Assembly (NCBI RefSeq): GCF_003334385.1
Contig: NZ_QOWN01000050.1
DNA length: 33,016 bases
DNA from: Escherichia coli
GTDB taxonomy: Bacteria > Pseudomonadota > Gammaproteobacteria > Enterobacterales > Enterobacteriaceae
Strand: one strand, 5' to 3'
The notes under the pieces are model-generated. The model searched no databases, was not told the origin of the DNA, and saw only the letters and a program-made list of their open reading frames with translations. Below, piece by piece: positions 651-21,404 of this stretch. Numbering within the stretch: position 1 is the stretch's first letter; the number at the start of each line of letters is the position of its first letter. A program made the translations under genes and the position numbers.

Positions 651-2315
651 TTACTTATACGCCGACTGGTGAACACCAACCGCGCGACCAGACGGATCGT
701 CCATTTTCTTGAACGCTTCATCCCATTCGATCGCTTTAGCGGAAGAACAAGCGACGGAAGGACCGCCCGGCACGCACTCAGCGGCGCTCGGAAGCGGGAA
801 TAGTTCTTCAAAGATCTCCCGATACAAGTACGCTTCTTTAGAGGTTGGCGTGTTGTACGGGAAGCGGAAGCGGGCAGTTTCCAGTTGCTGATCAGAAACC
901 TGCTGCGCAGCCACTTCTTTCAGGGTGTCGATCCAACTGTAACCGACGCCATCGGAGAACTGCTCTTTCTGCCGCCAGGCCACGCTTGCAGGCAGATACG
1001 CTTCAAAACATTCACGCAGGATGTGTTTTTCCATTTTGCCGTTACCGCACATTTTATCCTGTGGGTTAATACGCATCGCCACATCAAGGAATTTTTTGTC
1101 GAGGAACGGAACGCGTGCTTCCACGCCCCAGGCTGACATCGCTTTGTTGGCACGCGCGCAGTCATACATATGCAGGGCCAGCAGTTTACGCACCGTCTCT
1201 TCATGCAGTTCTTTGGCATTCGGTGCTTTGTGGAAGTAAAGATAACCGCCGAACACTTCATCAGAACCTTCACCGGACAGCACCATTTTAATGCCCATCG
1301 CCTTGATCTTACGCGACATTAAATACATCGGTGTTGAAGCGCGAATAGTGGTCACATCATAAGTTTCGATGTGGTAAATCACGTCGCGGATGGCATCCAG
1401 ACCTTCCTGTACAGTGAAGTGAATTTCGTGATGCACCGTGCCCAGATGGTTTGCCACTTCCTGGGCTGCTTTCAGATCCGGTGAACCCGGCAGACCTACA
1501 GCAAAGGAGTGTAACTGCGGCCACCAGGCTTCAGAGCGTTCCTGATCTTCCACGCGACGGGCTGCGTATTTCTTGGTGATAGCGGAAATAATTGAGGAAT
1601 CCAGACCACCAGAAAGCAGCACACCGTAAGGCACATCAGACATCAGATGGCTTTTAACTGAATCTTCCAGTGCCTGACGCAGCTCGTTTTTGTCGGTCAC
1701 GTTATCTTTCACCGCATCGTAGTCGAACCAGTCGCGATGATAGTAAGAACGGATTTCGCCGTCCTGGCTCCACAAATAGCTCCCCGCCGGGAACTCTTTA
1801 ATCGTGCGGCAAACTGGCACCAGCGCTTTCATTTCTGAGGCCACATACAGCTGACCGTGTTCGTCATACCCCATATACAGTGGGATGATCCCCAGATGGT
1901 CGCGACCAATCAGGTAGGCATCTTTTTCGCTGTCGTACAGTGCAAAGGCAAACATGCCCTGCAAGTCGTCGAGAAATTCCGGCCCTTTTTCCTGATACAG
2001 CGCGAGGATCACTTCACAGTCAGACCCGGTCTGGAACTGGTAACGATCGCCATATTCGGCGCGCAATGCCTGGTGGTTGTAGATTTCACCGTTTACCGCC
2101 AGTACGTGGGTTTTTTGTTGGTTGTAGAGAGGTTGCGCCCCCGCGTTAACGTCAACAATTGACAGACGTTCGTGGGCGAGAATGGCGTTATCGCTGGCAT
2201 AAATACCGGACCAGTCCGGGCCACGATGACGCATCAGGCGTGACAGCTCGAGGGCTTTCTTACGCAGCTCAACTGCGTCTGTTTTGATATCGAATACGCC
2301 AAAAATTGAACACAT
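651..2315 (-). CDS. asnB: asparagine synthetase B (glutamine-hydrolysing), 554 aa
   Basis: The track ORF 651..2396 contains MCSIFGVFDIK from internal Met 28, which is the known AsnB N-terminus with the catalytic Cys2. ATG at 2313..2315. Confidence 0.95.
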   Translation of the reverse strand: MCSIFGVFDIKTDAVELRKKALELSRLMRHRGPDWSGIYASDNAILAHERLSIVDVNAGAQPLYNQQKTHVLAVNGEIYNHQALRAEYGDRYQFQTGSDCEVILALYQEKGPEFLDDLQGMFAFALYDSEKDAYLIGRDHLGIIPLYMGYDEHGQLYVASEMKALVPVCRTIKEFPAGSYLWSQDGEIRSYYHRDWFDYDAVKDNVTDKNELRQALEDSVKSHLMSDVPYGVLLSGGLDSSIISAITKKYAARRVEDQERSEAWWPQLHSFAVGLPGSPDLKAAQEVANHLGTVHHEIHFTVQEGLDAIRDVIYHIETYDVTTIRASTPMYLMSRKIKAMGIKMVLSGEGSDEVFGGYLYFHKAPNAKELHEETVRKLLALHMYDCARANKAMSAWGVEARVPFLDKKFLDVAMRINPQDKMCGNGKMEKHILRECFEAYLPASVAWRQKEQFSDGVGYSWIDTLKEVAAQQVSDQQLETARFRFPYNTPTSKEAYLYREIFEELFPLPSAAECVPGGPSVACSSAKAIEWDEAFKKMDDPSGRAVGVHQSAYK

Positions 2316-2562
2316 AACCTTCTCCGTTAACCTGGTATTTGTTGCTTGTTGTGTTTGCTTGTTTAAAAAAATGCCGCAAAGCAGCACTGTGCGCAAGCGA
2401 TTTGGCGGTGAAAAAATAAAAAACGTAATGGTGATTGTCGATTGGTGAAAAAAGGTCTGGTGTGAGGATATATTTATTGATGAATCGATAATTTTTAGCG
2501 GGTTTTATTGAATGTTTATATTTTACGGGGGCCAAATTGCTGACAAAGTGCGATTTGTTCAT

Positions 2563-2661
2563 GCCGGATGCGGCGTGAACGCCTTATCCGGCCTACAAAA
2601 GCATGAAAATTCAATATATTGCAGGAGCTGCGTAGGCCTGATAAGCGTAGCGCATCAGGCA
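2563..2661. repeat. RIP/BIME-type element (two inverted REP units around a central linker)
   Basis: GCCGGATGCGGCGTGAACGCCTTATCCGGCCTAC ... GCAATATATTG ... GTAGGCCTGATAAGCGTAGCGCATCAGGCA. Same family as the elements at 10974..11073 and 18401..18500, in inverted orientation. Confidence 0.8.
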
Positions 2662-2711
2662 GTTTGGCGTTTGTCATCAGAGCCAACCACGTCCGCAGAC
2701 GTGGTTGCTAT

Positions 2712-3464
2712 TCAGATAACGTCGATTTCAGCGACTGACGGGTAAATCCAGCTGGGGCGGAAAGGCATACTGTCGATATCGTCGAGCGACGAAACACCAG
2801 AAAGCACCAGAATCGTCTCCAGACCTGCCTGGAAGCCGGCCAGAATATCGGTACGCAGGTTATCGCCGACAATCACCGTTTCTTCCGAATGCGCCTGCAT
2901 TTTGTTTAATGCTGCGCGGATGATCCACGGGCTGGGCTTACCAACATAGAACGGTTTGCGCCCGGAGATTTTCTCAATCCCTGCACACAACGCGCCACAA
3001 GCGGGATAAAAACCGCGCCCGTGGGTGTCCGGATTGGTGGCGATAAAACGTGCACCGTTAGCGACGAAATAGGCTGCTTTATGCATCATGTCCCAGTTGT
3101 AGGAACGCGTTTCGCCAACAATCACGAAATCAGGGTTCACATCGGTAATAGTGAAACCGGCTTTGTACAGTTCATGAATCAGTGCGCCTTCGCCCACCAC
3201 ATACGCTTTCTTGCCTTCCTGGCGACGCAGGAAATCGGCAGTCGCCATCGCAGAGGTATAAAACACGCTGTCAGGTACATCGACACCTGCGGTGGCAAAG
3301 CGGTTCGCCAGATCTTGCCCAGTCTGCGAAGGATAGTTGGTCAGCAACACCAGCGGCAGGCCTTTATCCATAATCCCGTGCAAAAATTCCGCTGCACCCG
3401 GTACGGCGACGTTATCGTGCATCAGCACGCCGTCGATATCGCAAATTACATTTTTAATGGTCAT
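2712..3464 (-). CDS. nagD: HAD-family UMP/ribonucleotide phosphatase NagD/UmpH, 250 aa
   Basis: Full-length ORF beginning MTIKNVICDIDGVLMHDN, the HAD motif I (DxDGV); last gene of the nagBACD cluster. Confidence 0.9.
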   Translation of the reverse strand: MTIKNVICDIDGVLMHDNVAVPGAAEFLHGIMDKGLPLVLLTNYPSQTGQDLANRFATAGVDVPDSVFYTSAMATADFLRRQEGKKAYVVGEGALIHELYKAGFTITDVNPDFVIVGETRSYNWDMMHKAAYFVANGARFIATNPDTHGRGFYPACGALCAGIEKISGRKPFYVGKPSPWIIRAALNKMQAHSEETVIVGDNLRTDILAGFQAGLETILVLSGVSSLDDIDSMPFRPSWIYPSVAEIDVI

Positions 3465-3511
3465 GGACTACCCAGAATATTGACAACAATAAGCGCCACT
3501 ATAAAAGCACA

Positions 3512-4732
3512 TTAATTTTCCAGCAAATGCTGGAGCAAAATACCGTTGAGCATGGCGCGTTTTACCAGCGCAAAAGCGCCGATTGCCGAGCGGTGATCCA
3601 GCTCAGAACGTACCACCGGCAGATTAGTGCGAAACGCCTTCAGCGCCTGGGTATTAATGCAGCTTTCAATAGCAGGGAGCAGCACTTTATCGGCTTCGGT
3701 GATTTCACCGGCAATAACAATTTTTTGCGGATTAAATAAGTTGATAGCAATGGCGATGGTTTTACCCAGATGACGACCGACATACTCAATTACTTCCGAC
3801 GCCAGACTATCGCCTTTGTTCGCGGCTTTGCAGATAGTTTTGATGGTGCAGTCGTCCAGCGGCACGCGGCTCTGGTAGCCCTGCTTTAACAGATTCAACA
3901 CCCGTTGTTCAATGGCAGCGTTGGCAGCGATAGTTTCCAGGCAGCCAAAGTTGCCGCAGTGGCAGCGTTCACCCAGCGGTTCGACCTGAATATGGCCAAT
4001 TTCACCGACGTTGCCGTTGCGGCCAATAAAAATGCGCCCGTTAGAGATAATCCCGGCCCCGGTTCCGCGATGGACACGCACCAGAATGGAGTCTTCGCAA
4101 TCCTGACTTGCACCGAAGTAGTGCTCCGCCAGCGCCAGACTACGGATATCGTGACCAACGAAACAGGTCACTTTAAAACGTTCTTCCAGAGCTTCTACCA
4201 GCCCCCAGTTTTCTACCTGAATATGCGGCATGTAATGAATTTTGCCGCTGTCCGGGTCAACAAGCCCTGGCAGGATCACCGAAATCGCGATCAGCTCGCG
4301 CAGTTTGCGCTGGTAGCTATCAATAAACTGAGCAATGGCATTCAACAGGGCATGTTCCAGCGTTTGCTGGGTACGTTCCGGCAGCGGGTAATGTTCTTCT
4401 GCCAGCACTTTGCTGCTGAGATCAAACAGAGTGATGGTGGCGTCATGACGACCAAGCCGTACGCCGATTGCGTGGAAATTGCGGGTTTCGGTGACGATGG
4501 AGATAGCGCGGCGGCCCCCGGTGGAGGCCTGCTGATCAACTTCTTTGATCAGCCCGCGTTCGATAAGCTGACGCGTAATTTTGGTTACGCTGGCGGGGGC
4601 AAGCTGGCTTTGCTCGGCAATCTGAATCCGCGAGATTGGCCCGTACTGGTCAATCAGGCGATAAACCGCCGCGCTGTTAAGCTGTTTTACGAGATCAACA
4701 TTACCTATCTGAGCTTGTCCGCCTGGTGTCAT
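3512..4732 (-). CDS. nagC: ROK-family transcriptional repressor NagC, 406 aa
   Basis: 406-aa ORF with an N-terminal helix-turn-helix and the ROK sugar-kinase-like fold including the CHCGNFGC zinc motif; ATG at 4730..4732. Confidence 0.95.
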   Translation of the reverse strand: MTPGGQAQIGNVDLVKQLNSAAVYRLIDQYGPISRIQIAEQSQLAPASVTKITRQLIERGLIKEVDQQASTGGRRAISIVTETRNFHAIGVRLGRHDATITLFDLSSKVLAEEHYPLPERTQQTLEHALLNAIAQFIDSYQRKLRELIAISVILPGLVDPDSGKIHYMPHIQVENWGLVEALEERFKVTCFVGHDIRSLALAEHYFGASQDCEDSILVRVHRGTGAGIISNGRIFIGRNGNVGEIGHIQVEPLGERCHCGNFGCLETIAANAAIEQRVLNLLKQGYQSRVPLDDCTIKTICKAANKGDSLASEVIEYVGRHLGKTIAIAINLFNPQKIVIAGEITEADKVLLPAIESCINTQALKAFRTNLPVVRSELDHRSAIGAFALVKRAMLNGILLQHLLEN

Positions 4733-4740
4733 ACTTTCTC

Positions 4741-6749
<2,009 letters not shown>

Positions 6750-7081
6750 TATTCACCTCAATAAGTAAAATGTAAGCCGTTGGCGGATTAGGCATCTTTA
6801 AGCGTAACCTGGATTTGCGCAGACAGGCGTCAATCCGACCTGATTTTTTGAATGATAAAATAAGTTTTCTGGTTTAGCCAGTAAAAGGGAGTGATGATAA
6901 CGATATTTGGTGACAAAACTCACAAAAGACACGCGTTTAATTTGCGATACGAATTAAATTTTCACACACTCTGTAGCAGATGATCTAACAATCTGATTAC
7001 AGAACATCGGCAGTACAATTTGCAGCAAAATAAAAATACGGCTTGAAACGAGCCAAATAGGGTTCTCGTAGGGGGAATAAG
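6750..7081. promoter_or_regulatory. divergent nagB / nagE promoter-operator region
   Basis: A 332-bp AT-rich intergenic region between divergently transcribed nagB and nagE. From established knowledge it carries two NagC operators and a CRP site; I cannot place the exact sites by eye. Confidence 0.6.
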
Positions 7082-9028
7082 ATGAATATTTTAGGTTTTT
7101 TCCAGCGACTCGGTAGGGCGTTACAGCTCCCTATCGCGGTGCTGCCGGTGGCGGCACTGTTGCTGCGATTCGGTCAGCCAGATTTACTTAACGTTGCGTT
7201 TATTGCCCAGGCGGGCGGTGCGATTTTTGATAACCTCGCATTAATCTTCGCCATCGGTGTGGCATCCAGCTGGTCGAAAGACAGCGCTGGTGCGGCGGCG
7301 CTGGCGGGTGCGGTAGGTTACTTTGTGTTAACCAAAGCGATGGTGACCATCAACCCAGAAATTAACATGGGTGTACTGGCGGGTATCATTACCGGTCTGG
7401 TTGGTGGCGCAGCCTATAACCGTTGGTCCGATATTAAACTGCCGGACTTCCTGAGCTTCTTCGGCGGCAAACGCTTTGTGCCGATTGCCACCGGATTCTT
7501 CTGCCTGGTGCTGGCGGCCATTTTTGGTTACGTCTGGCCGCCGGTACAGCACGCTATCCATGCAGGCGGCGAGTGGATCGTTTCTGCGGGCGCGCTGGGT
7601 TCCGGTATCTTTGGTTTCATCAACCGTCTGCTGATCCCAACCGGTCTGCATCAGGTACTGAACACCATCGCCTGGTTCCAGATTGGTGAATTCACCAACG
7701 CGGCGGGTACGGTTTTCCACGGTGACATTAACCGCTTCTATGCCGGTGACGGCACCGCGGGGATGTTCATGTCCGGCTTCTTCCCGATCATGATGTTCGG
7801 TCTGCCGGGTGCGGCGCTGGCGATGTACTTCGCAGCACCGAAAGAGCGTCGTCCGATGGTTGGCGGTATGCTGCTTTCTGTTGCTGTTACTGCGTTCCTG
7901 ACCGGTGTGACTGAGCCGCTGGAATTCCTGTTCATGTTCCTTGCTCCGCTGCTGTACCTCCTGCACGCACTGCTGACCGGTATCAGCCTGTTTGTGGCAA
8001 CGCTGCTGGGTATCCACGCGGGCTTCTCTTTCTCTGCGGGGGCTATCGACTACGCGTTGATGTATAACCTGCCGGCCGCCAGCCAGAACGTCTGGATGCT
8101 GCTGGTGATGGGCGTTATCTTCTTCGCTATCTACTTCGTGGTGTTCAGTTTGGTTATCCGCATGTTCAACCTGAAAACGCCGGGTCGTGAAGATAAAGAA
8201 GACGAGATCGTTACTGAAGAAGCCAACAGCAACACTGAAGAAGGTCTGACTCAACTGGCAACCAACTATATTGCTGCGGTTGGCGGCACTGACAACCTGA
8301 AAGCGATTGACGCCTGTATCACCCGTCTGCGCCTTACAGTGGCTGACTCTGCCCGCGTTAACGATACGATGTGTAAACGTCTGGGTGCTTCTGGGGTAGT
8401 GAAACTGAACAAACAGACTATTCAGGTGATTGTTGGCGCGAAAGCAGAATCCATCGGCGATGCGATGAAGAAAGTCGTTGCCCGTGGTCCGGTAGCCGCT
8501 GCGTCAGCTGAAGCAACTCCGGCAACTGCCGCGCCTGTAGCAAAACCGCAGGCTGTACCAAACGCGGTATCTATCGCGGAGCTGGTATCGCCGATTACCG
8601 GTGATGTCGTGGCACTGGATCAGGTTCCTGACGAAGCATTCGCCAGCAAAGCGGTGGGTGACGGTGTGGCGGTGAAACCGACAGATAAAATCGTCGTATC
8701 ACCAGCCGCAGGGACAATCGTGAAAATCTTCAACACCAACCACGCGTTCTGCCTGGAAACCGAAAAAGGCGCGGAGATCGTCGTCCATATGGGTATCGAC
8801 ACCGTAGCGCTGGAAGGTAAAGGCTTTAAACGTCTGGTGGAAGAGGGTGCGCAGGTAAGCGCAGGGCAACCGATTCTGGAAATGGATCTGGATTACCTGA
8901 ACGCTAACGCCCGCTCGATGATTAGCCCGGTGGTTTGCAGCAATATCGACGATTTCAGTGGCTTGATCATTAAAGCTCAGGGCCATGTTGTGGCGGGTCA
9001 AACACCGCTGTATGAAATCAAAAAGTAA
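7082..9028 (+). CDS. nagE: PTS N-acetylglucosamine-specific EIICBA component, 648 aa
   Basis: 648-aa ORF with an N-terminal multi-span membrane domain, a central EIIB motif and a C-terminal EIIA-Glc-like domain. Confidence 0.95.
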   Translation: MNILGFFQRLGRALQLPIAVLPVAALLLRFGQPDLLNVAFIAQAGGAIFDNLALIFAIGVASSWSKDSAGAAALAGAVGYFVLTKAMVTINPEINMGVLAGIITGLVGGAAYNRWSDIKLPDFLSFFGGKRFVPIATGFFCLVLAAIFGYVWPPVQHAIHAGGEWIVSAGALGSGIFGFINRLLIPTGLHQVLNTIAWFQIGEFTNAAGTVFHGDINRFYAGDGTAGMFMSGFFPIMMFGLPGAALAMYFAAPKERRPMVGGMLLSVAVTAFLTGVTEPLEFLFMFLAPLLYLLHALLTGISLFVATLLGIHAGFSFSAGAIDYALMYNLPAASQNVWMLLVMGVIFFAIYFVVFSLVIRMFNLKTPGREDKEDEIVTEEANSNTEEGLTQLATNYIAAVGGTDNLKAIDACITRLRLTVADSARVNDTMCKRLGASGVVKLNKQTIQVIVGAKAESIGDAMKKVVARGPVAAASAEATPATAAPVAKPQAVPNAVSIAELVSPITGDVVALDQVPDEAFASKAVGDGVAVKPTDKIVVSPAAGTIVKIFNTNHAFCLETEKGAEIVVHMGIDTVALEGKGFKRLVEEGAQVSAGQPILEMDLDYLNANARSMISPVVCSNIDDFSGLIIKAQGHVVAGQTPLYEIKK

Positions 9029-9076
9029 TCTGCTTTATGCCTGATGCGACGCTTGAGCGTCGCATCCAACAATGAC

Positions 9077-9110
9077 AAGCGGTGGAGATCTTCTCTGCCG
9101 CTTTTTTTTT
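9077..9110 (+). terminator. rho-independent terminator after nagE
   Basis: Imperfect GC stem AGCGGTGG...CTGCCGCT followed by T9 (9101..9110). Confidence 0.6.
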
Positions 9111-9230
9111 CATCAATCATCCCCATAATCCTTGTTAGATTATCAATTTTAAAAAACTAACAGTTGTCAGCCTGTCCCGCTTATAAGATCATACGCCGTT
9201 ATACGTTGTTTACGCTTTGAGGAATCCACG

Positions 9231-10895
9231 ATGAGTGAGGCAGAAGCCCGCCCGACTAACTTTATCCGTCAGATCATCGATGAAGATCTGGCCAGTGGTA
9301 AGCACACCACAGTACACACCCGTTTCCCGCCGGAGCCGAATGGCTATCTGCATATTGGCCATGCGAAATCTATCTGCCTGAACTTCGGGATCGCCCAGGA
9401 CTATAAAGGCCAGTGCAACCTGCGTTTCGACGACACTAACCCGGTAAAAGAAGATATCGAGTATGTTGAGTCGATCAAAAACGACGTAGAGTGGTTAGGT
9501 TTTCACTGGTCTGGTAACGTCCGTTACTCCTCCGATTATTTTGATCAGCTCCACGCCTATGCGATCGAACTGATCAATAAAGGCCTGGCGTACGTTGATG
9601 AACTGACGCCGGAACAGATCCGCGAATACCGCGGCACCCTGACGCAACCGGGTAAAAACAGCCCGTACCGCGACCGCAGCGTTGAAGAGAACCTGGCGCT
9701 GTTCGAAAAAATGCGTGCCGGTGGTTTTGAAGAAGGTAAAGCCTGCCTGCGTGCGAAAATCGACATGGCTTCACCGTTTATCGTGATGCGCGATCCGGTG
9801 CTGTACCGTATTAAATTTGCTGAACACCACCAGACTGGCAACAAGTGGTGCATCTACCCGATGTACGACTTCACCCACTGCATCAGCGATGCCCTGGAAG
9901 GTATTACGCACTCTCTGTGTACGCTTGAGTTCCAGGACAACCGTCGTCTGTACGACTGGGTACTGGACAACATCACGATTCCTGTTCACCCGCGCCAGTA
10001 TGAGTTCTCGCGCCTGAATCTGGAATACACCGTGATGTCCAAGCGTAAGTTGAACCTGCTGGTGACCGACAAGCACGTTGAAGGCTGGGATGACCCGCGT
10101 ATGCCGACCATTTCCGGTCTGCGTCGTCGTGGTTACACTGCGGCTTCTATTCGTGAGTTCTGCAAACGCATCGGCGTGACCAAGCAGGACAACACCATTG
10201 AGATGGCGTCGCTGGAATCCTGCATCCGTGAAGATCTCAACGAAAATGCGCCGCGCGCAATGGCGGTTATCGATCCGGTGAAACTGGTTATCGAAAACTA
10301 TCAGGGCGAAGGCGAAATGGTTACCATGCCGAACCATCCGAACAAACCGGAAATGGGCAGCCGTCAGGTGCCGTTTAGCGGTGAGATTTGGATTGATCGC
10401 GCCGATTTCCGCGAAGAAGCTAACAAGCAGTACAAACGTCTGGTGCTGGGTAAAGAAGTGCGTCTGCGTAATGCTTATGTGATTAAGGCAGAACGCGTCG
10501 AGAAAGATGCCGAAGGTAATATCACCACCATCTTCTGTACTTATGACGCCGATACCTTAAGCAAAGATCCGGCAGATGGTCGTAAAGTCAAAGGTGTTAT
10601 TCACTGGGTGAGCGCGGCACATGCGCTGCCGGTTGAAATCCGTTTGTATGACCGTCTGTTCAGCGTGCCTAACCCAGGTGCTGCGGATGATTTCCTGTCG
10701 GTGATTAACCCGGAATCGCTGGTGATCAAACAGGGCTTTGCTGAACCGTCGCTGAAAGATGCGGTTGCGGGTAAAGCATTCCAGTTTGAGCGTGAAGGTT
10801 ACTTCTGCCTCGATAGCCGCCATTCTACGGCGGAAAAACCGGTATTTAACCGCACCGTTGGGCTGCGTGATACCTGGGCGAAAGTAGGCGAGTAA
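9231..10895 (+). CDS. glnS: glutaminyl-tRNA synthetase, 554 aa
   Basis: Begins [20 protein letters not shown]; class I HIGH motif ([14 protein letters not shown]) and a VMSKR variant of KMSKS. Confidence 0.95.
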
Positions 10896-10911
10896 TTTTA
10901 AGTTTCGCTAT

Positions 10912-10942
10912 GCCGGATGGGGCGTTTACGTCGCATCCGGCA
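10912..10942. repeat. single REP unit
   Basis: GCCGGATGGGGCGTTTACGTCGCATCCGGCA immediately after the glnS stop. Confidence 0.7.
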
Positions 10943-10973
10943 AGGAACAGACAAACAGTTTCAAACGCTAAAT

Positions 10974-11073
10974 TGCCTGATGCGCTACGCTTATCAGGCC
11001 TACATGATCTCTGCAATATATTGAGTTTGCGTGCTTTTGTAGGCCGGATAAGGCGTTCACGCCGCATCCGGCA
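10974..11073. repeat. RIP/BIME-type element
   Basis: TGCCTGATGCGCTACGCTTATCAGGCCTAC ... GCAATATATTGAG ... GTAGGCCGGATAAGGCGTTCACGCCGCATCCGGCA. Confidence 0.8.
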
Positions 11074-11093
11074 AGAAACAGCAAACAATCCAA

Positions 11094-11119
11094 AACGCCG
11101 CGTTCAGCGGCGTTTTTTC
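11094..11119 (+). terminator. rho-independent terminator at the end of the glnS transcript
   Basis: AACGCCGCGTTCAGCGGCGTT hairpin followed by TTTTTT. Confidence 0.7.
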
Positions 11120-11451
11120 TGCTTTTCTTCGCGAATTAATTCCGCTTCGCAATTTATCCATAAAATAAATTTAAAATAACAAAACATAATTAAATAAAAT
11201 GTAACCGCTTTCATCTTGCTGGAATTTCACGCTTTTATTCTTCTGCAAGCCTTTCAACCGCAAACTTAAGCCTTGTAACAAAAATCATCAAAATATGTGC
11301 GGTTGCTCATGTTCTTACATTCTGGTTACAGAAAGAGATTGATAATTCGCGTCGCGAAAAATAGTCTGTTCCTGTAGTCAGCGAGACTTTTCTCAACGCT
11401 ACTTTTTTAATTTTTATTTTTTCGCTGTTCACCTTTGGTGCAGCAATTTAT

Positions 11452-11464
11452 ACGTCAAAGAGGA
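11452..11464 (+). promoter_or_regulatory. ChiX sRNA pairing site overlapping the chiP Shine-Dalgarno
   Basis: ACGTCAAAGAGGA lies 8 nt upstream of the chiP ATG and is complementary to the UCCUCUUUGACG core of ChiX as I recall it. Confidence 0.5.
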
Positions 11465-11471
11465 TTAACCC

Positions 11472-12878
11472 ATGCGTACGTTTAGTGGCAAACGTAGTAC
11501 GCTGGCGCTGGCTATCGCCGGTGTTACAGCAATGTCGGGCTTTATGGCAATGCCGGAGGCTCGCGCCGAAGGATTCATCGACGATTCAACCTTAACCGGC
11601 GGTATCTATTACTGGCAGCGTGAACGCGACCGTAAAGATGTTACCGACGGCGACAAATACAAAACCAACCTTTCTCACTCCACCTGGAATGCCAACCTCG
11701 ATTTTCAGTCCGGTTATGCTGCTGATATGTTCGGCCTTGATATTGCTGCGTTTACGGCGATTGAAATGGCGGAAAACGGCGACAGCTCCCACCCGAACGA
11801 AATCGCGTTTTCAAAAAGTAATAAAGCCTATGACGAAGACTGGTCCGGCGACAAAAGCGGTATAAGCCTGTATAAAGCTGCGGCCAAATTTAAATACGGT
11901 CCGGTTTGGGCGAGGGCAGGTTACATTCAGCCAACTGGTCAAACGCTGTTAGCGCCGCACTGGAGCTTTATGCCAGGTACTTATCAGGGGGCGGAAGCCG
12001 GGGCGAATTTTGATTACGGCGATGCTGGTGCGTTGAGTTTCTCCTACATGTGGACCAACGAATACAAAGCGCCGTGGCATCTGGAAATGGATGAGTTTTA
12101 TCAGAACGATAAAACCACCAAAGTTGATTATCTGCACTCCTTTGGGGCGAAATACGACTTCAAAAATAACTTCGTACTGGAAGCGGCATTTGGTCAGGCG
12201 GAAGGGTATATCGGTCAATATTTTGCCAAAGCCAGCTACAAATTTGATATCGCCGGTAGCCCGTTAACCACCAGCTACCAGTTCTACGGTACCCGAGATA
12301 AAGTTGACGATCGCAGCGTCAACGACCTTTATGACGGCACCGCCTGGCTGCAAGCGTTGACCTTTGGTTACCGGGCGGCTGACGTAGTGGATTTGCGCCT
12401 CGAAGGCACCTGGGTTAAGGCTGACGGTCAGCAGGGATACTTCCTGCAACGTATGACTCCAACCTACGCTTCCTCAAACGGTCGCCTGGATATCTGGTGG
12501 GATAACCGTTCTGACTTCAACGCCAACGGCGAAAAAGCGGTCTTCTTCGGTGCGATGTATGACCTGAAAAACTGGAATCTTCCAGGCTTCGCCATCGGCG
12601 CTTCCTACGTTTACGCATGGGATGCTAAACTTGCGACCTGGCAGAGCAATCCGGATGCGTACTACGACAAAAACCGGACTATTGAAGAGTCTGCCTACAG
12701 CCTAGATGCGGTCTATACCATTCAGGACGGTCGCGCCAAAGGCACGATGTTCAAACTGCATTTCACCGAATACGACAACCACTCCGACATCCCAAGCTGG
12801 GGCGGTGGTTACGGCAACATCTTCCAGGATGAGCGTGACGTGAAATTTATGGTAATCGCACCATTCACCATCTTCTGA
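11472..12878 (+). CDS. chiP: chitoporin, OprD-family outer-membrane porin, 468 aa
   Basis: 468-aa ORF with a signal peptide ([32 protein letters not shown]) and a C-terminal aromatic residue (..FTIF), typical of a beta-barrel. Confidence 0.9.
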
Positions 12879-12927
12879 TGCCCGACGCGGCAGGTTTTGT
12901 GCCTGCCGCACGTTTGAGGAATTTGCT

Positions 12928-13254
12928 ATGAAAAAACTGATTCTCATCGCCATAATGGCATCGGGGCTGGTAGCTTGTGCGCAATCAACCGCGCCACAGG
13001 AAGACAGTCGTCTGAAAGAGGCATACAGCGCCTGTATCAACACCGCACAAGGTTCGCCAGAAAAAATTGAAGCCTGCCAGAGCGTGTTAAACGTGCTGAA
13101 GAAAGAGAAACAACATCAGCAGTTTGCCGACCAGGAAAGTGTACGCGTACTGGATTATCAGCAGTGTCTGCGTGCAACGCAAACCGGAAATGATCAGGCG
13201 GTGAAAGCCGATTGTGATAAAGTCTGGCAGGAAATACGCAGTAATAACAAATAA
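12928..13254 (+). CDS. chiQ: small lipoprotein ChiQ, 108 aa
   Basis: Lipobox LVAC in MKKLILIAIMASGLVACAQ; 49 bp downstream of chiP. Confidence 0.85.
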   Translation: MKKLILIAIMASGLVACAQSTAPQEDSRLKEAYSACINTAQGSPEKIEACQSVLNVLKKEKQHQQFADQESVRVLDYQQCLRATQTGNDQAVKADCDKVWQEIRSNNK

Positions 13255-13294
13255 GTGAGAGCTGTAACTCTCGCTTTTCTTATTTCCCTTGCAT

Positions 13295-13325
13295 AAAAAA
13301 GCCAACCCGCAGGTTGGCTTTTCTC
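13295..13325. terminator. bidirectional rho-independent terminator between convergent chiQ and fur
   Basis: AAAAAA-GCCAACC-CGCA-GGTTGGC-TTTTCT: perfect 7-bp stem with an A-run upstream and a T-run downstream. Confidence 0.8.
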
Positions 13326-13337
13326 GTTCAGGCTGGC

Positions 13338-13784
13338 TTATTTGCCTTCGTGCGCATGTTCATCTTCGCGGCAATCGCCTTCGGCACAGTGACCGTAAAG
13401 ATAGAGACTGTGGTTAGTCAGGCGAATGCCATGTTTTGCGGCAATTTCACGCTGACGCGCTTCGATGGAATCATCACTAAATTCGATAACCTTGCCGCAG
13501 TCGAGGCAGATCAGGTGATCGTGGTGATGTTGCTGTGTCAGTTCAAATACGGATTTACCGCCTTCAAAATTGTGGCGGGTGACGATACCAGCGTCGTCAA
13601 ACTGGTTCAGTACGCGATATACCGTAGCCAGACCAATTTCTTCACCCATATCGATCAGACGTTTGTATAAATCTTCCGCACTGACGTGATGGTTGTCCGG
13701 CTCCTGAAGAACTTCCAGGATTTTTAAACGAGGAAGCGTTACTTTCAGGCCAGCTTTCTTTAGGGCGGTATTGTTATCAGTCAT
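13338..13784 (-). CDS. fur: ferric uptake regulator Fur, 148 aa
   Basis: MTDNNTALKKAGLKVTLPRLKILEVLQEP... with the HHHDH metal-site motif. Confidence 0.95.
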   Translation of the reverse strand: MTDNNTALKKAGLKVTLPRLKILEVLQEPDNHHVSAEDLYKRLIDMGEEIGLATVYRVLNQFDDAGIVTRHNFEGGKSVFELTQQHHHDHLICLDCGKVIEFSDDSIEARQREIAAKHGIRLTNHSLYLYGHCAEGDCREDEHAHEGK

Positions 13785-13863
13785 GCGGAATCTGTCCTGT
13801 TACTAAGCGGTTCACTTCATTAGAAGAAGTGACAGAATTTGCTCTTGAGATAATGCGTATCAT
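13777..13863 (-). CDS. uof: uof, 28-codon upstream ORF translationally coupled to fur
   Basis: MIRIISRANSVTSSNEVNRLVTGQIPHD matches the published uof peptide; its stop overlaps the fur ATG by 8 nt. Confidence 0.75.
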   Translation of the reverse strand: MIRIISRANSVTSSNEVNRLVTGQIPHD

Positions 13864-13868
13864 TATAG
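13847..13868. promoter_or_regulatory. Fur-box-like motif overlapping the uof start
   Basis: GAGATAATGCGTATCATTATAG resembles the Fur box consensus GATAATGATAATCATTATC. Confidence 0.4.
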
Positions 13869-14041
13869 AATTGCCACGCCTAAATGAAAACCACAAGTCC
13901 CTGGCAAATATTGTTAATAAAAACGTGGCACAGCTTACATTTACAACGGCAAGGCCACTTGAACACCGGGACATTGTACAGGTACAACAGCAAAAGTTAC
14001 AAATTTGTAGCAATTATTTTGATTGGCATTATCTATTAATA

Positions 14042-14066
14042 CGGCGTAGACATGAGTCTACGCCGC
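14042..14066 (-). terminator. stem-loop just downstream of the fldA stop
   Basis: CGGCGTAGAC-ATGA-GTCTACGCCG, a perfect 10-bp stem. The downstream T-tract on the minus strand is weak, so this may be a partial terminator or RNA-processing structure. Confidence 0.4.
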
Positions 14067-14072
14067 ATCACA

Positions 14073-14603
14073 TCAGGCATTGAGAATTTCGTCGAGATGC
14101 AACTCTTCAGAAATCTGTTTAACCCATTTTTCTACACGTTCAGCGGTCAGTTCCGGCTGACGGTCTTCGTCGATAGCCAGACCGACAAAGTGGTCGTCAT
14201 CTGCCAGACCTTTTGATGCTTCGAAATGATAGCCCGCAGTTGGCCAGTGACCAACGATGGTTGCACCGCGCGGTTCAATGATGTCGCGGATGGTGCCCAA
14301 TGCGTCGCAGAAATATTCGGCGTAATCTTCCTGGTCACCACAACCAAACAGCGCAACCAGTTTGCCGTTGAAATCAATCTCTTCGAGAGTCGGGAAGAAG
14401 TCATCCCAGTCACACTGCGCTTCGCCGTAATACCAGGTTGGGATGCCCAGCAGCAGAATGTCATAAGCTTCCAGATCTTCTTTGCTGCTTTTTGCAATGT
14501 CATGGACATCGGCAACGTCTTTACCAAGCTGTTTTTGAATCATTTTTGCGATATTTTCGGTATTACCGGTGTCGCTGCCGAAAAAGATGCCAGTGATAGC
14601 CAT
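14073..14603 (-). CDS. fldA: flavodoxin 1, 176 aa
   Basis: Internal Met 40 of the track ORF gives [23 protein letters not shown], the flavodoxin FMN-binding loop. Confidence 0.95.
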
Positions 14604-14742
14604 GAGTGAAATAACCTCTTGAAACTTATTGAAATGGGGGTGGAAAATTGCCCACGGATAAAGGCAATCATAGCAGAACAGGCAGTCTTGCGGAATCAGC
14701 AAACGAGCAGGACTGCACACTGTGCTACATGAAAGTGGAAAT

Positions 14743-15036
14743 TTAAACGATGCCCTGACTACGCAGCGCCGCCAGTTGCTGCATTAACATCTCTTCGATC
14801 AGTTCGCTACGGCTCATATTGCGCGACTCCGCCAGCTCGTTCAGCGCCTCGACAGCTTCCGCGTTCAGCTTCAGTTCGACACGCTTAAGGCCACGTACTT
14901 TGTCGCGTTTTAGCTGGTTGCGTTTATTAATACGCAGCTGTTCATCGCGCGAAAGCGGATTAGTTTTCGGTCGTCCCGGTCGACGCTCGTGCGCGAACAG
15001 ATCTAATGTCGTACGGTCCGTTTGTTCTTTGGCCAT
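14743..15036 (-). CDS. ybfE: LexA-regulated small protein YbfE, 97 aa
   Basis: Internal Met gives [28 protein letters not shown]... Confidence 0.8.
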
Positions 15037-15152
15037 GATCTTGGTGACTTCGGGGGAAACAATCAGCCAGGCCTCTGCCCGGATGGATAGCGCGCCATAA
15101 TACATCAGCGCGATGAGTCACGCCAACGCCCACGCGCGGAAAGCGACGCGGA

Positions 15153-15172
15153 CGCTGGGTTTTTAATCAGTT
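15153..15172. promoter_or_regulatory. candidate LexA (SOS) box upstream of ybfE
   Basis: CGCTGGGTTTTTAATCAGTT has the form CTG-N10-CAG with an AT-rich centre; about 120 bp upstream of the ybfE ATG. Confidence 0.4.
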
Positions 15173-15175
15173 GCG

Positions 15176-15940
15176 TTAATCATTGAGATAGCGACGGATA
15201 GCGCGTAATACCGCATCCGGTTTTTCAGCATGGACCCAGTGACCCGCGCCTGCAATCACATGCGCCCGTGCCTGTGGAAATTGAGCCAGTAAATCATCAC
15301 GGTACTGCTCGCTAACATACGGAGAATTGCCGCCAGGGATAAACAGGGCAGGGTGATCCCATGCCGGGATTTTCTCCCAACCTACAATATGCGGATACTG
15401 ATCCCACAATACCGGCACGTTAAAGCGCCACTCCCCGTCAACAAAAGATTTCAGCAGAAACTGAATCACCCCTTCTTCATTAAGATGCTGGCGCATTATT
15501 GCTGCTGCTTGCTGGCGAGTTTGTGCGTCCGATTCACTGACCGCGTTGATAGCCGCAAAAATCTCATCATGACGGCGTACGTGATAGTCGACCGGCGCGA
15601 TATCGATCGCTACCAGTTTATCGATGCGATCGGAGGCTAGTGCAGTAAGTGCCATTACCGCTTTACCGCCCATGGAGTGACCGATAAATGTTGCTTTGTC
15701 GATCTGCTGTGCATCCAGAGTATCAACAAGATCCTGCGCCATCGCCGGGTAATTCATTACCGGATCTCTCGGTGAAAGACCGTGGTTACGCATATCAACC
15801 TGGATGATATTGTGATCGTTTACCAGATCGCGAGCCAGTACGCCAAGGTTGTCGAGGCTGCCAAACAGACCGTGGACAAGAACGATGGGAGAATTATTGT
15901 GCTGGTTTTGTGCAGTTTGCGCGCGGATATTCAATTTCAT
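15176..15940 (-). CDS. ybfF: alpha/beta-hydrolase esterase YbfF, 254 aa
   Basis: Nucleophile elbow GHSMGG and length match YbfF. Confidence 0.9.
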   Translation of the reverse strand: MKLNIRAQTAQNQHNNSPIVLVHGLFGSLDNLGVLARDLVNDHNIIQVDMRNHGLSPRDPVMNYPAMAQDLVDTLDAQQIDKATFIGHSMGGKAVMALTALASDRIDKLVAIDIAPVDYHVRRHDEIFAAINAVSESDAQTRQQAAAIMRQHLNEEGVIQFLLKSFVDGEWRFNVPVLWDQYPHIVGWEKIPAWDHPALFIPGGNSPYVSEQYRDDLLAQFPQARAHVIAGAGHWVHAEKPDAVLRAIRRYLND

Positions 15941-16124
15941 GGCAAAGTTCTTTTTTTCGCGTTGTCGGGTTAGGGTATTATGTTGACCATTGTGCCACAG
16001 GGCTGCAACAAATAAGGTTTATTCCGAGTTTTTCTGCAAGCCAGGCTTGACGCTATCCGCTGCCGGGATTTATTCATATACTCCTGGCGACTTGTATTCA
16101 GCTAAGACACTGCACTGGATTAAG

Positions 16125-16670
16125 ATGAAAACGATTGAAGTTGATGATGAACTCTACAGCTATATTGCCAGCCACACTAAGCATATCGGCGAGAGCGCAT
16201 CCGACATTTTACGGCGTATGTTGAAATTTTCCGCCGCATCACAGCCTGCTGCTCCGGTGACGAAAGAGGTTCGCGTTGCGTCACCTGCTATCGTCGAAGC
16301 GAAGCCGGTCAAAACGATTAAAGACAAGGTTCGCGCAATGCGTGAACTTCTGCTTTCGGATGAATACGCAGAGCAAAAGCGAGCGGTCAATCGCTTTATG
16401 CTGCTGTTGTCTACACTATATTCTCTTGACGCCCAGGCGTTTGCCGAAGCAACGGAATCGTTGCACGGTCGTACACGCGTTTACTTTGCGGCAGATGAAC
16501 AAACGCTGCTGAAAAATGGTAATCAGACCAAGCCGAAACATGTGCCAGGCACGCCGTATTGGGTGATCACCAACACCAACACCGGCCGTAAATGCAGCAT
16601 GATCGAACACATCATGCAGTCGATGCAATTCCCGGCGGAATTGATTGAGAAGGTTTGCGGAACTATCTAA
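16125..16670 (+). CDS. seqA: replication-initiation negative regulator SeqA, 181 aa
   Basis: Internal Met gives [35 protein letters not shown]. Confidence 0.95.
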
Positions 16671-16695
16671 AACGTTGCAGACAAAGGACAAAGCA

Positions 16696-18336
16696 ATGGC
16701 AATCCACAATCGTGCAGGCCAACCTGCACAACAGAGTGATTTGATTAACGTCGCCCAACTGACGGCGCAATATTATGTACTGAAACCAGAAGCAGGGAAT
16801 GCGGAGCACGCGGTGAAATTCGGTACTTCCGGTCACCGTGGCAGTGCAGCGCGCCACAGCTTTAACGAGCCGCACATTCTGGCGATCGCTCAGGCAATTG
16901 CTGAAGAACGTGCGAAAAACGGCATCACTGGCCCTTGCTATGTGGGTAAAGATACTCACGCCCTGTCCGAACCTGCATTCATTTCCGTTCTGGAAGTGCT
17001 GGCAGCGAACGGCGTTGATGTCATTGTGCAGGAAAACAATGGCTTCACCCCGACGCCTGCCGTTTCCAATGCCATCCTGGTTCACAATAAAAAAGGTGGC
17101 CCGCTGGCAGACGGTATCGTGATTACACCGTCCCATAACCCGCCGGAAGATGGTGGAATCAAATACAATCCGCCAAATGGTGGCCCGGCTGATACCAACG
17201 TCACTAAAGTGGTGGAAGACAGGGCCAACGCACTGCTGGCCGATGGCCTGAAAGGCGTGAAGCGTATCTCCCTCGACGAAGCGATGGCATCCGGTCATGT
17301 GAAAGAGCAGGATCTGGTGCAGCCGTTCGTGGAAGGTCTGGCCGATATCGTTGATATGGCCGCGATTCAGAAAGCGGGCCTGACGCTGGGCGTTGATCCG
17401 CTGGGCGGTTCCGGTATCGAATACTGGAAGCGTATTGGCGAGTATTACAACCTCAACCTGACTATCGTTAACGATCAGGTCGATCAAACCTTCCGCTTTA
17501 TGCACCTTGATAAAGACGGCGCGATCCGTATGGACTGCTCCTCCGAGTGTGCGATGGCGGGCCTGCTGGCACTGCGTGATAAGTTCGATCTGGCGTTTGC
17601 TAACGACCCGGATTATGACCGTCACGGTATCGTCACTCCGGCAGGTTTGATGAATCCGAACCACTACCTGGCGGTGGCAATCAATTACCTGTTCCAGCAT
17701 CGTCCGCAGTGGGGCAAAGATGTTGCCGTCGGTAAAACGCTGGTTTCATCTGCGATGATCGACCGTGTGGTCAACGACTTGGGCCGTAAACTGGTAGAAG
17801 TCCCGGTAGGTTTCAAATGGTTTGTCGATGGTCTGTTCGACGGCAGCTTCGGCTTTGGCGGCGAAGAGAGTGCAGGGGCTTCCTTCCTGCGTTTCGACGG
17901 CACGCCGTGGTCCACCGACAAAGACGGCATCATCATGTGTCTGCTGGCGGCGGAAATCACCGCTGTCACCGGTAAGAACCCGCAGGAACACTACAACGAA
18001 CTGGCAAAACGCTTTGGTGCGCCGAGCTACAACCGTTTGCAGGCAGCTGCGACTTCCGCACAAAAAGCGGCGCTGTCTAAGCTGTCTCCGGAAATGGTGA
18101 GCGCCAGCACCCTGGCAGGTGACCCGATCACCGCGCGCCTGACTGCTGCTCCGGGCAACGGTGCTTCTATTGGCGGTCTGAAAGTGATGACTGACAACGG
18201 CTGGTTCGCCGCGCGTCCGTCAGGCACGGAAGACGCATATAAGATCTACTGCGAAAGCTTCCTCGGTGAAGAACATCGCAAGCAGATTGAGAAAGAAGCG
18301 GTTGAGATTGTTAGCGAAGTTCTGAAAAACGCGTAA
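16696..18336 (+). CDS. pgm: phosphoglucomutase, 546 aa
   Basis: [16 protein letters not shown]... with the phosphoserine loop TPSHNP; 25 bp downstream of seqA. Confidence 0.95.
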
Positions 18337-18353
18337 ACACATTTAATAAAAAA

Positions 18354-18380
18354 AGGGCGGTCGCAAGATCGCCCTTTTTT
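18354..18380 (+). terminator. rho-independent terminator after pgm
   Basis: AAAGGGCG-GTCGCAAGAT-CGCCCTTT followed by a T-run. Confidence 0.75.
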
Positions 18381-18400
18381 ACGTATGACAAACACAGAAT

Positions 18401-18500
18401 TGCCTGATGCGCTACGCTTATCAGGCCTACGAGGATGGTGCAATATATTGAATTTAAGCGATTTTGTAGGCCGGATAAGGCGTTCACGCCGCATCCGGCA
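18401..18500. repeat. RIP/BIME-type element
   Basis: TGCCTGATGCGCTACGCTTATCAGGCCTAC ... GCAATATATTGAAT ... GTAGGCCGGATAAGGCGTTCACGCCGCATCCGGCA. Confidence 0.8.
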
Positions 18501-18549
18501 AAAACAACGAACACTTTGTCAACAAACTGAGTAGCTCAAGGAAATCCCA

Positions 18550-19044
18550 ATGAAGACCAACAGGAGTCTGGTCGTCATAGTGTCACTAATTACCGCCACA
18601 TTACTGCTGACTGCATGCGCCCAACCTGAACAATCATCATTAGCTGGCGACTGGTTACTGACCCCTAAAGATAAAACCAGAGGATTAACGGGTAGCATTG
18701 CGGTAAATATTGCACCTTTCCGGTGTAAGACAAATTGCCGTGGTGATAACTTACCTGATAATACCCGCCGCTGGCAGTTGTCAGGCGGGAACGAAAAAGA
18801 ACTTACTTATCTTCATAATATGTCAGCACAAGAAAAGGTCGGTTTAAATCCCGGTTGGCAATGCTACACCTCATTTTTTATGCGGGTTTGCCAGGGCAAG
18901 CCCGGCACTCGACCGATAGTCAATGAGGATTATGTCAGCGAAAGCGGATTTTTTGGCTCGATGATGCATGTCGGGATTATTGAGTTACGACGCTGCCAGT
19001 CAGAAAATTGCCAGCAAGAATTGAAAGCGATAAATACACATTAA
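18550..19044 (+). CDS. ybfP: lipoprotein YbfP, 164 aa
   Basis: Signal peptide with lipobox LTAC (MKTNRSLVVIVSLITATLLLTACAQ). Confidence 0.8.
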   Translation: MKTNRSLVVIVSLITATLLLTACAQPEQSSLAGDWLLTPKDKTRGLTGSIAVNIAPFRCKTNCRGDNLPDNTRRWQLSGGNEKELTYLHNMSAQEKVGLNPGWQCYTSFFMRVCQGKPGTRPIVNEDYVSESGFFGSMMHVGIIELRRCQSENCQQELKAINTH

Positions 19045-19084
19045 AATAGTGAGTCCGGGAATGAAACCCGGACCTGAACATGTC

Positions 19085-19735
19085 TTATTGCGTGAATGTT
19101 TCTTTCATTTGATACTGCATTTCCCAGAGTTCAGTAAGCGAAATAACTTTTCTTGTTCTTGCTTCTTCACTTTGTACCCATAAGAAAGGGTAGAACGTGA
19201 AGGCTTCCGTTGCCGATAATTTTATTACGTCTTCTCGCCATTGCTGCCATCGTACATTTTCATAGAAGGTATCTAAATCACCGGATAATGCCCACTGAAG
19301 AAACTCAGAATATCCAACTTCCAGACTTTCCCAATTCAGCGTATCTGGCGCAAAATAATAAACGCAGCCAGTATCTTCCCCAAGATCGCCACCATTAAGA
19401 GCAAAAATTCCCCCTGCGACATCGTCAGCGATGGGTAAAGCCCGCACGCCTGCGAATTCAGGGCGTTGTGTCCAACTTACTGGATCTCGTGGCAACCGGG
19501 GGTGACCAGATCCTGCTATGCGTAACCAACCATTATCAATCAGCAGACCTCCGGAGCCATAGACAAGCGCACCCATCGGTGATTTTGTTGTCACCTGTAA
19601 TTGATAAAGTGCGGTTTCGGCTAAATCTTTATTAACCGGTAAGAGTTCGGTATGGTTTGTGGCGTCTTTTAACCAGTTCTGGATTATTGGCCAGGCTGAA
19701 TCTTCAGTATTTACTAACTGATTCATTTCACGCAT
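19085..19735 (-). CDS. ybfG: uncharacterised protein YbfG (I recall DUF2625 family), intact here, about 216 aa
   Basis: The track ORF runs 19085..19843; I place the start at the internal ATG (19733..19735), which has AAGGAG 9 nt upstream. Confidence 0.6.
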   Translation of the reverse strand: MREMNQLVNTEDSAWPIIQNWLKDATNHTELLPVNKDLAETALYQLQVTTKSPMGALVYGSGGLLIDNGWLRIAGSGHPRLPRDPVSWTQRPEFAGVRALPIADDVAGGIFALNGGDLGEDTGCVYYFAPDTLNWESLEVGYSEFLQWALSGDLDTFYENVRWQQWREDVIKLSATEAFTFYPFLWVQSEEARTRKVISLTELWEMQYQMKETFTQ

Positions 19736-19856
19736 CGCTACTTGCTCCTTGTGTGCTACGGTGTCATTTATGATGAGGAATTGTATGGAACATTTTTTAA
19801 ATATTAAGTTCCTTATATTTGAATAAAAAATGACTTTATCCATACATTGCCACTTT

Positions 19857-19989
19857 TTTCAAAGCATAAACCGATACCCAATACCGGTTTCAGTAATAAA
19901 ATGGCGAGGCCGGGCCGGATCCTGTTCCAGTTTTTGTCGCAGATGCCCCATATAATTACGCAAATAGTTGCTGTGTTCGATCGCGTTTA
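19857..19989 (-). pseudogene. 3' remnant of a kdpE-like response regulator (C-terminal winged-helix, about 44 codons)
   Basis: About 90 percent nucleotide identity to the 3' end of kdpE at 24195..24330, same orientation, in frame, with the stop conserved: LNAIEHSNYLRNYMGHLRQKLEQDPARPRHFITETGIGYRFML. No N-terminal receiver domain or start codon. I think K-12 annotates this as pseudogene ybfI but am not certain. Confidence 0.6.
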
Positions 19990-20044
19990 GACCCTACATC
20001 TGCCGGATGCGGCATAAATAACGAACTATTTGCCAACAAACAGA

Positions 20045-20075
20045 AAGGGCGATCATTCAATCGCCCTTTTTTACT
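20045..20075. terminator. rho-independent terminator downstream of potE
   Basis: GGGCGAT-CATTCA-ATCGCCC hairpin with T-rich flanks on both strands. Confidence 0.75.
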
Positions 20076-20083
20076 TTGTTTTA

Positions 20084-21404
20084 TTAACCGTGTTTATTTT
20101 TCAGTTCAAAGCGTGGTGATACCAGACCATACAGTGTCCAACCAAGGAAGGTCACGATGGAACCGTACAGCATGGCTTCTTCCCCGGATGAGTACAGCGC
20201 ATAAAAGCTATACATCGCGCCAACAAAAGCAACAAAGTTTGCAACTTTCGCTTTTGAGGGGGGCACATTAGCGACCTTCTGAATAATGACTAATGCCGCC
20301 ATTGACAGAATATACGGAATGATATTGGTCACCACGGCCAGGTTAACCAGCACGTTGAACTGACTGTTTAGCGACGGGCTAATGGTCATCAGTGCCAATC
20401 CACTCTGAATAATCACAATGGTCAACATTCCCTGCACCGGTGCATCCACTTTGGTTACACGGGAGAAAATTTTAGGGAAGTAGCCTTCATCAGATGAAGA
20501 TTTAAACACCTGGGCAATGGTGAACTGCCAGCCAAGTAGCGAACCGCAGCAGGACATCACCATCAGCGCCATAATGACTTTACCCACTTCCGGCGTGAAC
20601 ATCTGCGCGAAGGCCAGACCAAATGGTGCCGTTGAATTTGCCAGCTCCATATTTGGCACAATCCCGGCAATCACGTTGGTGGAGACGATATAAATCACCG
20701 CCGCACCTAACGTACCGCCGAGTACCGCGATTGGCACATTACGTTCCGGGTTTTCCACTACATCAGTATTCGCACACGCAGACTCCAGACCAAGAAAAGC
20801 TCACAGCGTCATAGCGATGGAAGAAACCTACCGCACTGAAGAACGGTGCATGATGCGGATTCCAGGAATCAACGTACAGCGTCGGGCTAAACCAGAACCA
20901 GCCAATAATGCACAGACCGACGACCGGAATAATGACCCCCCACACGGTAATGCTACTGATTTGCCCGGTAATGCGCGCACCACCAAAGTTAGCCACGGTA
21001 CAAATCCACAGCACCCCGATGGTCGCAAGACCAATCTGCACTGGCGACAAACTCGCGCCGAGCAGTTCGGTGCCGTAACCAACCGCCGAAATAGCAATCG
21101 CGACGTTAGCAATCAGCAGTGAGACGCCGTAGGTATAGTTCGCCATAAAGTTACCGGATTTACCGAAAGCATACTCGGCATAACCGCCCATACCGCCTGA
21201 TTTACGGCTGAACATACCGCATTTTGCGAATGCCCATGCCAGTGCCATTGAGCCTACGGCTGTCACCAGCCAGGAGATAATTGAGATTGTCCCGACTTCG
21301 GCAAGCTTTGTCGGCAGCATGATGATACCGGAGCCCATCATGTTGACCATCGTCAGTATGGTTAACTGAACGACGCCCATTTTGTTCGATTTAGCCTGAC
21401 TCAT
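20084..21404 (-). pseudogene. potE: putrescine-ornithine antiporter PotE, reading frame disrupted
   Basis: Two track ORFs in different frames (20763..21404 and 20084..20758) together cover the 439-aa PotE. The frame breaks after ..FFSAVG by one extra T in a T-run (+ strand AAA at 20824..20826), and the restored frame reads SSIAMTL-stop-AFLGLESACANTDVVENPERNV, with TGA (+ strand 20801..20803) where Trp is expected. Confidence 0.8.

Follow-up and report, generated by a model that had tools for sequence, protein, structure and literature searches.

The DNA analysed here, a stretch of 33,016 nucleotides that we refer to as the window, is a segment of the Escherichia coli chromosome with the gene order asnB-nag-glnS-chiP-fur-pgm-potE-speF-kdp-ybfA. 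When aligned by BLAST with K-12 MG1655 over 32.9 kb, the window is 99.94% identical, differing by 18 substitutions and two single-base indels. The complete genome closest to it is that of SCU-104.

The potE locus and its two lesions

We are concerned here with potE, on the minus strand at 20084..21404, the gene for the putrescine-ornithine antiporter. Its identity as the orthologue of K-12 b0692 is clear: it is 99.8% identical to K-12 potE, it has the same neighbours, it overlaps speF, and its position downstream of speF matches both K-12 and SCU-104. That is, locus, synteny and sequence are all like those of potE in the K-12 speFL-speF-potE operon, with 1319 of the 1320 K-12 bases kept and one base inserted. 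The gene for the inducible ornithine decarboxylase, speF, is intact (21401..23599, minus strand, 732 aa) and carries N406D relative to K-12, a replacement also present in SCU-104; the speFL leader peptide ORF (23857..23961, minus strand) is intact and identical to that of K-12. Thus the operon is otherwise intact, as a preliminary description of this DNA had held, since speF is full-length, speFL is undamaged and potE has no further differences from K-12.

Aligning the window with K-12 b0692 yields exactly two differences within potE, and both are lesions. The first is a nonsense mutation: position 20801 has T against C in K-12, so that codon 201 changes from TGG to TGA on the coding strand and Trp201 becomes a stop (minus strand, 20801..20803; the plus strand reads TCA). 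The second is a +1 insertion at 20824..20826, also on the minus strand, where the plus strand has AAA and the wild type AA (coding TT>TTT). As a result the coding strand reads GGT TTC TTC instead of GGT TCT TCC, and the frame shifts after Gly193. The stop lies eight codons beyond Gly193 in the original potE frame, and in the window allele it is out of frame owing to the upstream insertion.

In place of an uninterrupted frame of 439 codons, the window therefore holds two remnants. The N-terminal ORF (20763..21404, minus strand) encodes 213 aa, of which 193 are native and 20 frameshifted, and ends in TGA at 20763-20765. The C-terminal one, as given by the list of open reading frames (20084..20758, minus strand), encodes 224 aa from a GTG start at Val216 to Gly439. 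Residues 194-215, W201 and E207 included, are encoded by neither. With a frameshift after G193 and TGA at W201, unlike in K-12, a full-length product is impossible; reverting both lesions would be predicted to give the 439-aa K-12 PotE protein. The preliminary description had already placed two separate lesions eight codons apart and a potE split into two ORFs at the coordinates that the K-12 alignment supports. It had also stated that either lesion alone truncates the protein at about residue 215 of 439. We agree that each alone destroys the transporter, but native sequence ends at residue 193 with the frameshift or at residue 200 with the stop; the frameshifted ORF is 213 aa long.

Several features of the surrounding sequence deserve mention. 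Directly downstream of potE lies a 145-bp copy of the 3' end of kdpE (19858-20002, against 24194-24338), 90% identical, which the K-12 annotation treats as a partial winged-helix pseudogene. A DUF2625 gene (19085-19735, minus strand) is intact, with TGG where K-12 has an internal TAG, and also differs by V109G; since the gene is intact here and a pseudogene in K-12, the K-12 state is the derived one. An intergenic repeat of some 120-140 bp, presumably an element of the REP/BIME type, occurs in three copies (2537-2677, 10962-11087 and 18385-18525) that are 85-91% identical, one of them in the opposite orientation.

Private changes in the clone and the reality of the lesions

We call a change private if it is absent from both K-12 and SCU-104. 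There are six such changes: the +1 insertion in potE, two substitutions in chiP, two in the kdp genes, and the loss of one T from an operator. In chiP, D248G at 12214 alters the A of a GATC site (GATC>GGTC), and a synonymous change at 12704 falls in a Dcm site (CCTGG>CCTAG). In kdpD we find Q510R (26025), and in kdpC W36* (TGG>TAG; 28011-28013, minus strand), which is due to C>T at the inner cytosine of a Dcm sequence (CCAGG>CTAGG). The kdpC stop is absent from K-12, from SCU-104 and from L011, a public contig discussed below, and a contig from the Logan assemblies has kdpC called as pieces of 35 and 142 aa; as a K+ pump, Kdp is probably non-functional in this clone. The sixth change lies upstream of kdpF in the KdpE operator, TTTATA-CTTT-TTTACA (32043-32058, minus strand), whose T run at 32046-32051 has six bases as opposed to seven in K-12. 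The spacer between the half-sites TTTATA and TTTACA is accordingly 4 bp and not 5 bp, at a site that lies outside the independent assemblies compared. A 5-bp spacer between KdpE half-sites is conserved (PMC3264566).

Apart from these changes, the kdpD start codon (27551-27553, minus strand) is ATA rather than ATG, which corresponds to E190K in the overlapping kdpC. This ATA is common to SCU-104, where RefSeq places kdpD at the same coordinates, and the call in the Logan contig starts one codon longer (895 aa).

All six private changes fall within three loci, chiP, potE and kdp, that together cover 32% of the window (P ~1e-3, for a grouping chosen post hoc). Such clustering is expected from purifying selection elsewhere combined with relaxed selection on genes that are dispensable or dead, and it supports ordinary decay of potE. 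As for the spectrum, the four private substitutions comprise transitions only, and two of them affect Dcm 5-methylcytosines (P = 2e-4 for at least two of four). The inner C of CCWGG is the classical hotspot of C>T change by 5-methylcytosine deamination; the spectrum is deamination- or mutator-like.

The same spectrum raises the question of whether the lesions are sequencing or assembly errors, a homopolymer miscall joined to a base-call error. One lesion is indeed a length change in a run of bases, and three of the other private changes sit on Dam- or Dcm-methylated bases (GATC>GGTC, CCTGG>CCTAG, CCAGG>CTAGG), where errors are a familiar pattern of nanopore base-calling. Against this stand the independent assemblies. 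An exact look-up of the 213-aa product of the double lesion in the protein collection returned two Logan contigs only. One of these, ERR1948963_157, the same contig in six samples, shows 100% identity with the window from 18481 to 31404, both lesions included, and crosses the site unbranched. The NCBI assembly GCA_012738655.1 (contig DABDAA010000011.1, 119 kb), which may come from the same reads as the ERR1948963 contig, matches the window at 100% over 1472..22878, potE included; we reached this assembly, and a second ERR1948963 contig (L015), by way of the window's own ChiP variant. Thus NCBI and Logan assemblies agree with the window base for base over 12.9-21.4 kb. Moreover, the stop is present in dozens of unrelated assemblies, and the run grows by only a single base, from two to three. 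We conclude from the agreement between assemblies that both lesions are real and reproducible, and that the artefact which the preliminary description had allowed for is highly improbable. For the same reason, identity at 100% with NCBI and Logan assemblies in several samples, we dropped the broader notion of a nanopore-type artefact that would account jointly for the methylated-base substitutions and the two run-length indels.

Distribution and history of the two changes

Neither lesion occurs among the 4,769 complete genomes of E. coli searched: for a 96-nt query covering both sites, the best match, at 94 of 96 positions, is wild type at both, and in a search with full-length potE the top matches likewise differ by these two changes. 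A reference potE with the window's nucleotides at these positions, which the preliminary description had named as evidence against its claim, is thus found in none of them. All 4,769 have the wild-type sequence at both sites, and the lesions are private or rare. A permissive pattern for the lesions also gave no match in a collection of species-representative genomes, although that pattern fits wild-type potE too, so the scan is uninformative; E. coli is expected in the collection, and the scan may mishandle IUPAC codes and a variable gap. A literature search returned no paper on PotE Trp201 or on ERR1948963.

The two lesions differ sharply in their distribution beyond the complete genomes. The product of the stop alone (200 aa, ending in AMTL) is present in 63 contigs (89 index blocks) drawn from NCBI, ENA and Logan, and the stop-only allele is found in a metagenome assembly as well. 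Among its carriers, besides SRR3290151, are SRR5296381, SRR23750850, ERR3905568, SRR29313680, GCA_050023015.1 and GCA_053257735.1. In L011 (SRR3290151), the same TGA stands on a sequence in which, across 18481..24515, some 6 kb, the absence of the extra base is the sole departure from the window; three polymorphisms in kdp also distinguish L011 from the window. By contrast, the product of the frameshift alone was not found in a collection of 15 billion proteins, nor was the frameshift pattern found in the 4,769 complete genomes or in JGI metagenomes.

Since the stop-only allele exists and the frameshift-only allele is found nowhere, the parsimonious order is nonsense first and frameshift second, and on these sequence comparisons it is the likeliest one. 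In the first step, a G>A change on the coding strand would have turned the TGG of Trp201 into TGA, cutting the 12-helix LeuT-fold antiporter within helix 6; we infer that the TGA of the window is identical by descent with that of L011. In the second step, slippage in a short run of T, 23 nt upstream, would have added one base, and the insertion would have been retained in a gene already dead and unselected, where a further lesion should be neutral. We therefore regard potE as probably a true pseudogene without function, in which two spontaneous mutations of an ordinary kind occurred one after the other.

More broadly, codon 201 reads TGA, TAG or TAA across E. coli backgrounds (loci L004-L013), TAA being two steps from TGG. 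TGA occurs on two potE haplotypes, that of the window and L011 and that of L005 and L009, and TAG on the K-12-like haplotype, which indicates that the mutation recurs or, for TGA, that it moves by recombination. In another lineage, TGA (L005 and L009) and TAA (L004 and L010) share one potE haplotype, which is a second case of a further hit following a first nonsense mutation. The Logan contigs L012 and L013 end exactly at codon 201, which suggests mixed alleles in those samples.

How surprising is the closeness of the two lesions? At the observed density of six private changes per 33 kb, potE is expected to receive about 0.24 of them; once a hit does land there, it falls within 23 nt of the stop with a probability of ~0.035, a mild coincidence that was noticed post hoc. 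Among seven changes in 33 kb, 0.03 pairs as close as 23 nt are expected. One complex event, such as an error-prone repair patch or a template switch, could have made both changes; they are indeed closer together than chance would place them (P ~0.03), and the frameshift has never been seen without the stop. Yet the identical TGA occurs alone on the identical 6-kb haplotype of L011, and also in the truncated contigs L012 and L013, the sequence between and around the two sites is otherwise unchanged, and no nearby repeat could have served as a template. We therefore find a single event very unlikely.

Deliberate engineering of a potE knock-out, which the preliminary description had also entertained, would account for a pair of inactivating changes set close together in a gene otherwise identical to that of K-12. 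The background, however, is not K-12: the window has 18 further differences, among them the intact DUF2625 gene. What is present is one transition and one inserted base, with no cassette, no FRT or lox scar and no designed array of stop codons; the stop is a natural allele of other isolates and of a metagenome assembly, and the carriers resemble ordinary isolate or surveillance assemblies. The chance that potE was engineered strikes us as close to negligible.

It remains to weigh selection for the loss of PotE. Suppose that potE is disfavoured in the niche of this clone. The second lesion could then have been favoured because it removes a leaky activity due to read-through of UGA, whereby Trp would be put back and wild-type protein made; as the frameshift precedes the UGA, no such read-through product can form. 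Consistent with this scenario, W201 nonsense mutations have arisen in three or more backgrounds (two haplotypes carry TGA, and the K-12-like one TAG), many other truncations of potE circulate, and speF and speFL remain intact.

To compare W201* with other nonsense alleles, we counted exact truncated products in the protein collection, a crude measure that includes clonal expansions and proteins cut at contig ends. By this measure W201* is found in 63 contigs, and each of the ten other transition-type truncations of PotE that were looked up also exists in public data, in 35-237 contigs each (W57*, W133*, Q148*, W155*, W169*, W171*, W181*, Q267*, W292* and W422*). The corresponding counts are 170 and 50 for nagE W152* and W198*, 58 and 29 for kdpA W167* and W176*, 17 and 27 for asnB W182* and W196*, and zero for pgm W244*. 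In the essential gene glnS, truncations at W93, W206 and W243 occur in 2, 19 and 15 contigs, and this range of 2-19 gives the noise floor of such look-ups, made up of contig ends, errors and mixtures. The counts for potE resemble those for nagE and kdpA, which are dispensable, and exceed those for glnS; potE bears no sign of exceptional selection for loss. These counts also led us to reject W201 as a mutational or selective hotspot, an idea raised by the TGA, TAG and TAA codons on different backgrounds.

The ordinary nonsense counts thus speak against adaptive loss. So does the absence of W201* from all 4,769 complete genomes, which implies that no successful lineage has been built on it, and so do the lesions in kdpC, the kdp operator and chiP of the same clone, which point to relaxed selection in general. 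We consider adaptive loss unlikely; and selection against function, which the preliminary description had proposed, is not needed to explain the data, for the stop occurs alone elsewhere, the frameshift never does, the second hit would be neutral, and the nonsense counts are ordinary. A wider reading is quite unlikely as well: an adaptive loss locked in by the lesion that kills read-through, and/or a natural mutator clone defective in mismatch repair or Vsr, in which a private spectrum of transitions only, two of the four on Dcm 5-methylcytosines, together with two run-length indels, would make pseudogenes quickly. The two spontaneous mutations that we favour fit the whole of the clone, whose multiple hits in kdp too are consistent with relaxed selection on dispensable genes rather than with a cause specific to potE.

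Functional consequence and comparison with known systems

In order to place the lesions in the fold of the protein, we compared PotE with its closest solved homologue, the arginine/agmatine antiporter AdiC (PDB 3ncy, 3l1l and others), which differs in its substrate pair and served only this purpose. The two proteins align end to end (E = 3e-77), and W201 of PotE aligns with W202 of AdiC, in the helix 6 motif TLW(A/S)F(L/I)G(L/V)E. The N-terminal remnant stops before helix 6, and the C-terminal remnant begins after it. Since residues 194-215 are present in neither remnant, transport activity should be nil, and the sequence predicts a loss of PotE function. The clone probably lacks putrescine/ornithine exchange through PotE while keeping speF, so that ornithine decarboxylase would be uncoupled from its antiporter.

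We take this to be an ordinary pseudogene in a dispensable gene, with no new mechanism, and one that matters little beyond annotation. It does carry a caution, however. A pair of lesions this close looks striking, whereas population data show the stop alone elsewhere and the frameshift never without the stop; and, for a dispensable gene of E. coli, essentially every nonsense allele that a transition can create is already present somewhere in public data.

Three comparisons with known systems put the locus in perspective. The first is with programmed +1 frameshifting, as in prfB or in eukaryotic antizyme, which is polyamine-sensing. There is a likeness, in that the reading frame of potE, too, would be restored by a +1 shift and the operon is concerned with polyamines. 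However, no known shifty motif is present at the potE site, and once back in frame the ribosome would meet the TGA, which it would also have to read through. We rejected programmed ribosomal frameshifting or other recoding as an explanation, for the site is not conserved: it is wild type in the 4,769 genomes, and the insertion occurs in no other genome or metagenome contig.

The second comparison is with the natural nonsense alleles of potE in E. coli and Shigella, that is, W201* and the ten listed above. The TGA at W201 in the window belongs among them, and only in this clone has an upstream +1 frameshift been added.

The third is with the multi-hit pseudogenes of Shigella and of host-restricted Salmonella, lineages in which such genes accumulate under relaxed selection. 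There, as here, several lesions are found per gene or operon: in this clone two in potE and three in kdp (the operator deletion, kdpC W36* and kdpD Q510R). Unlike those lineages, the clone has a K-12-like, commensal-type E. coli background.
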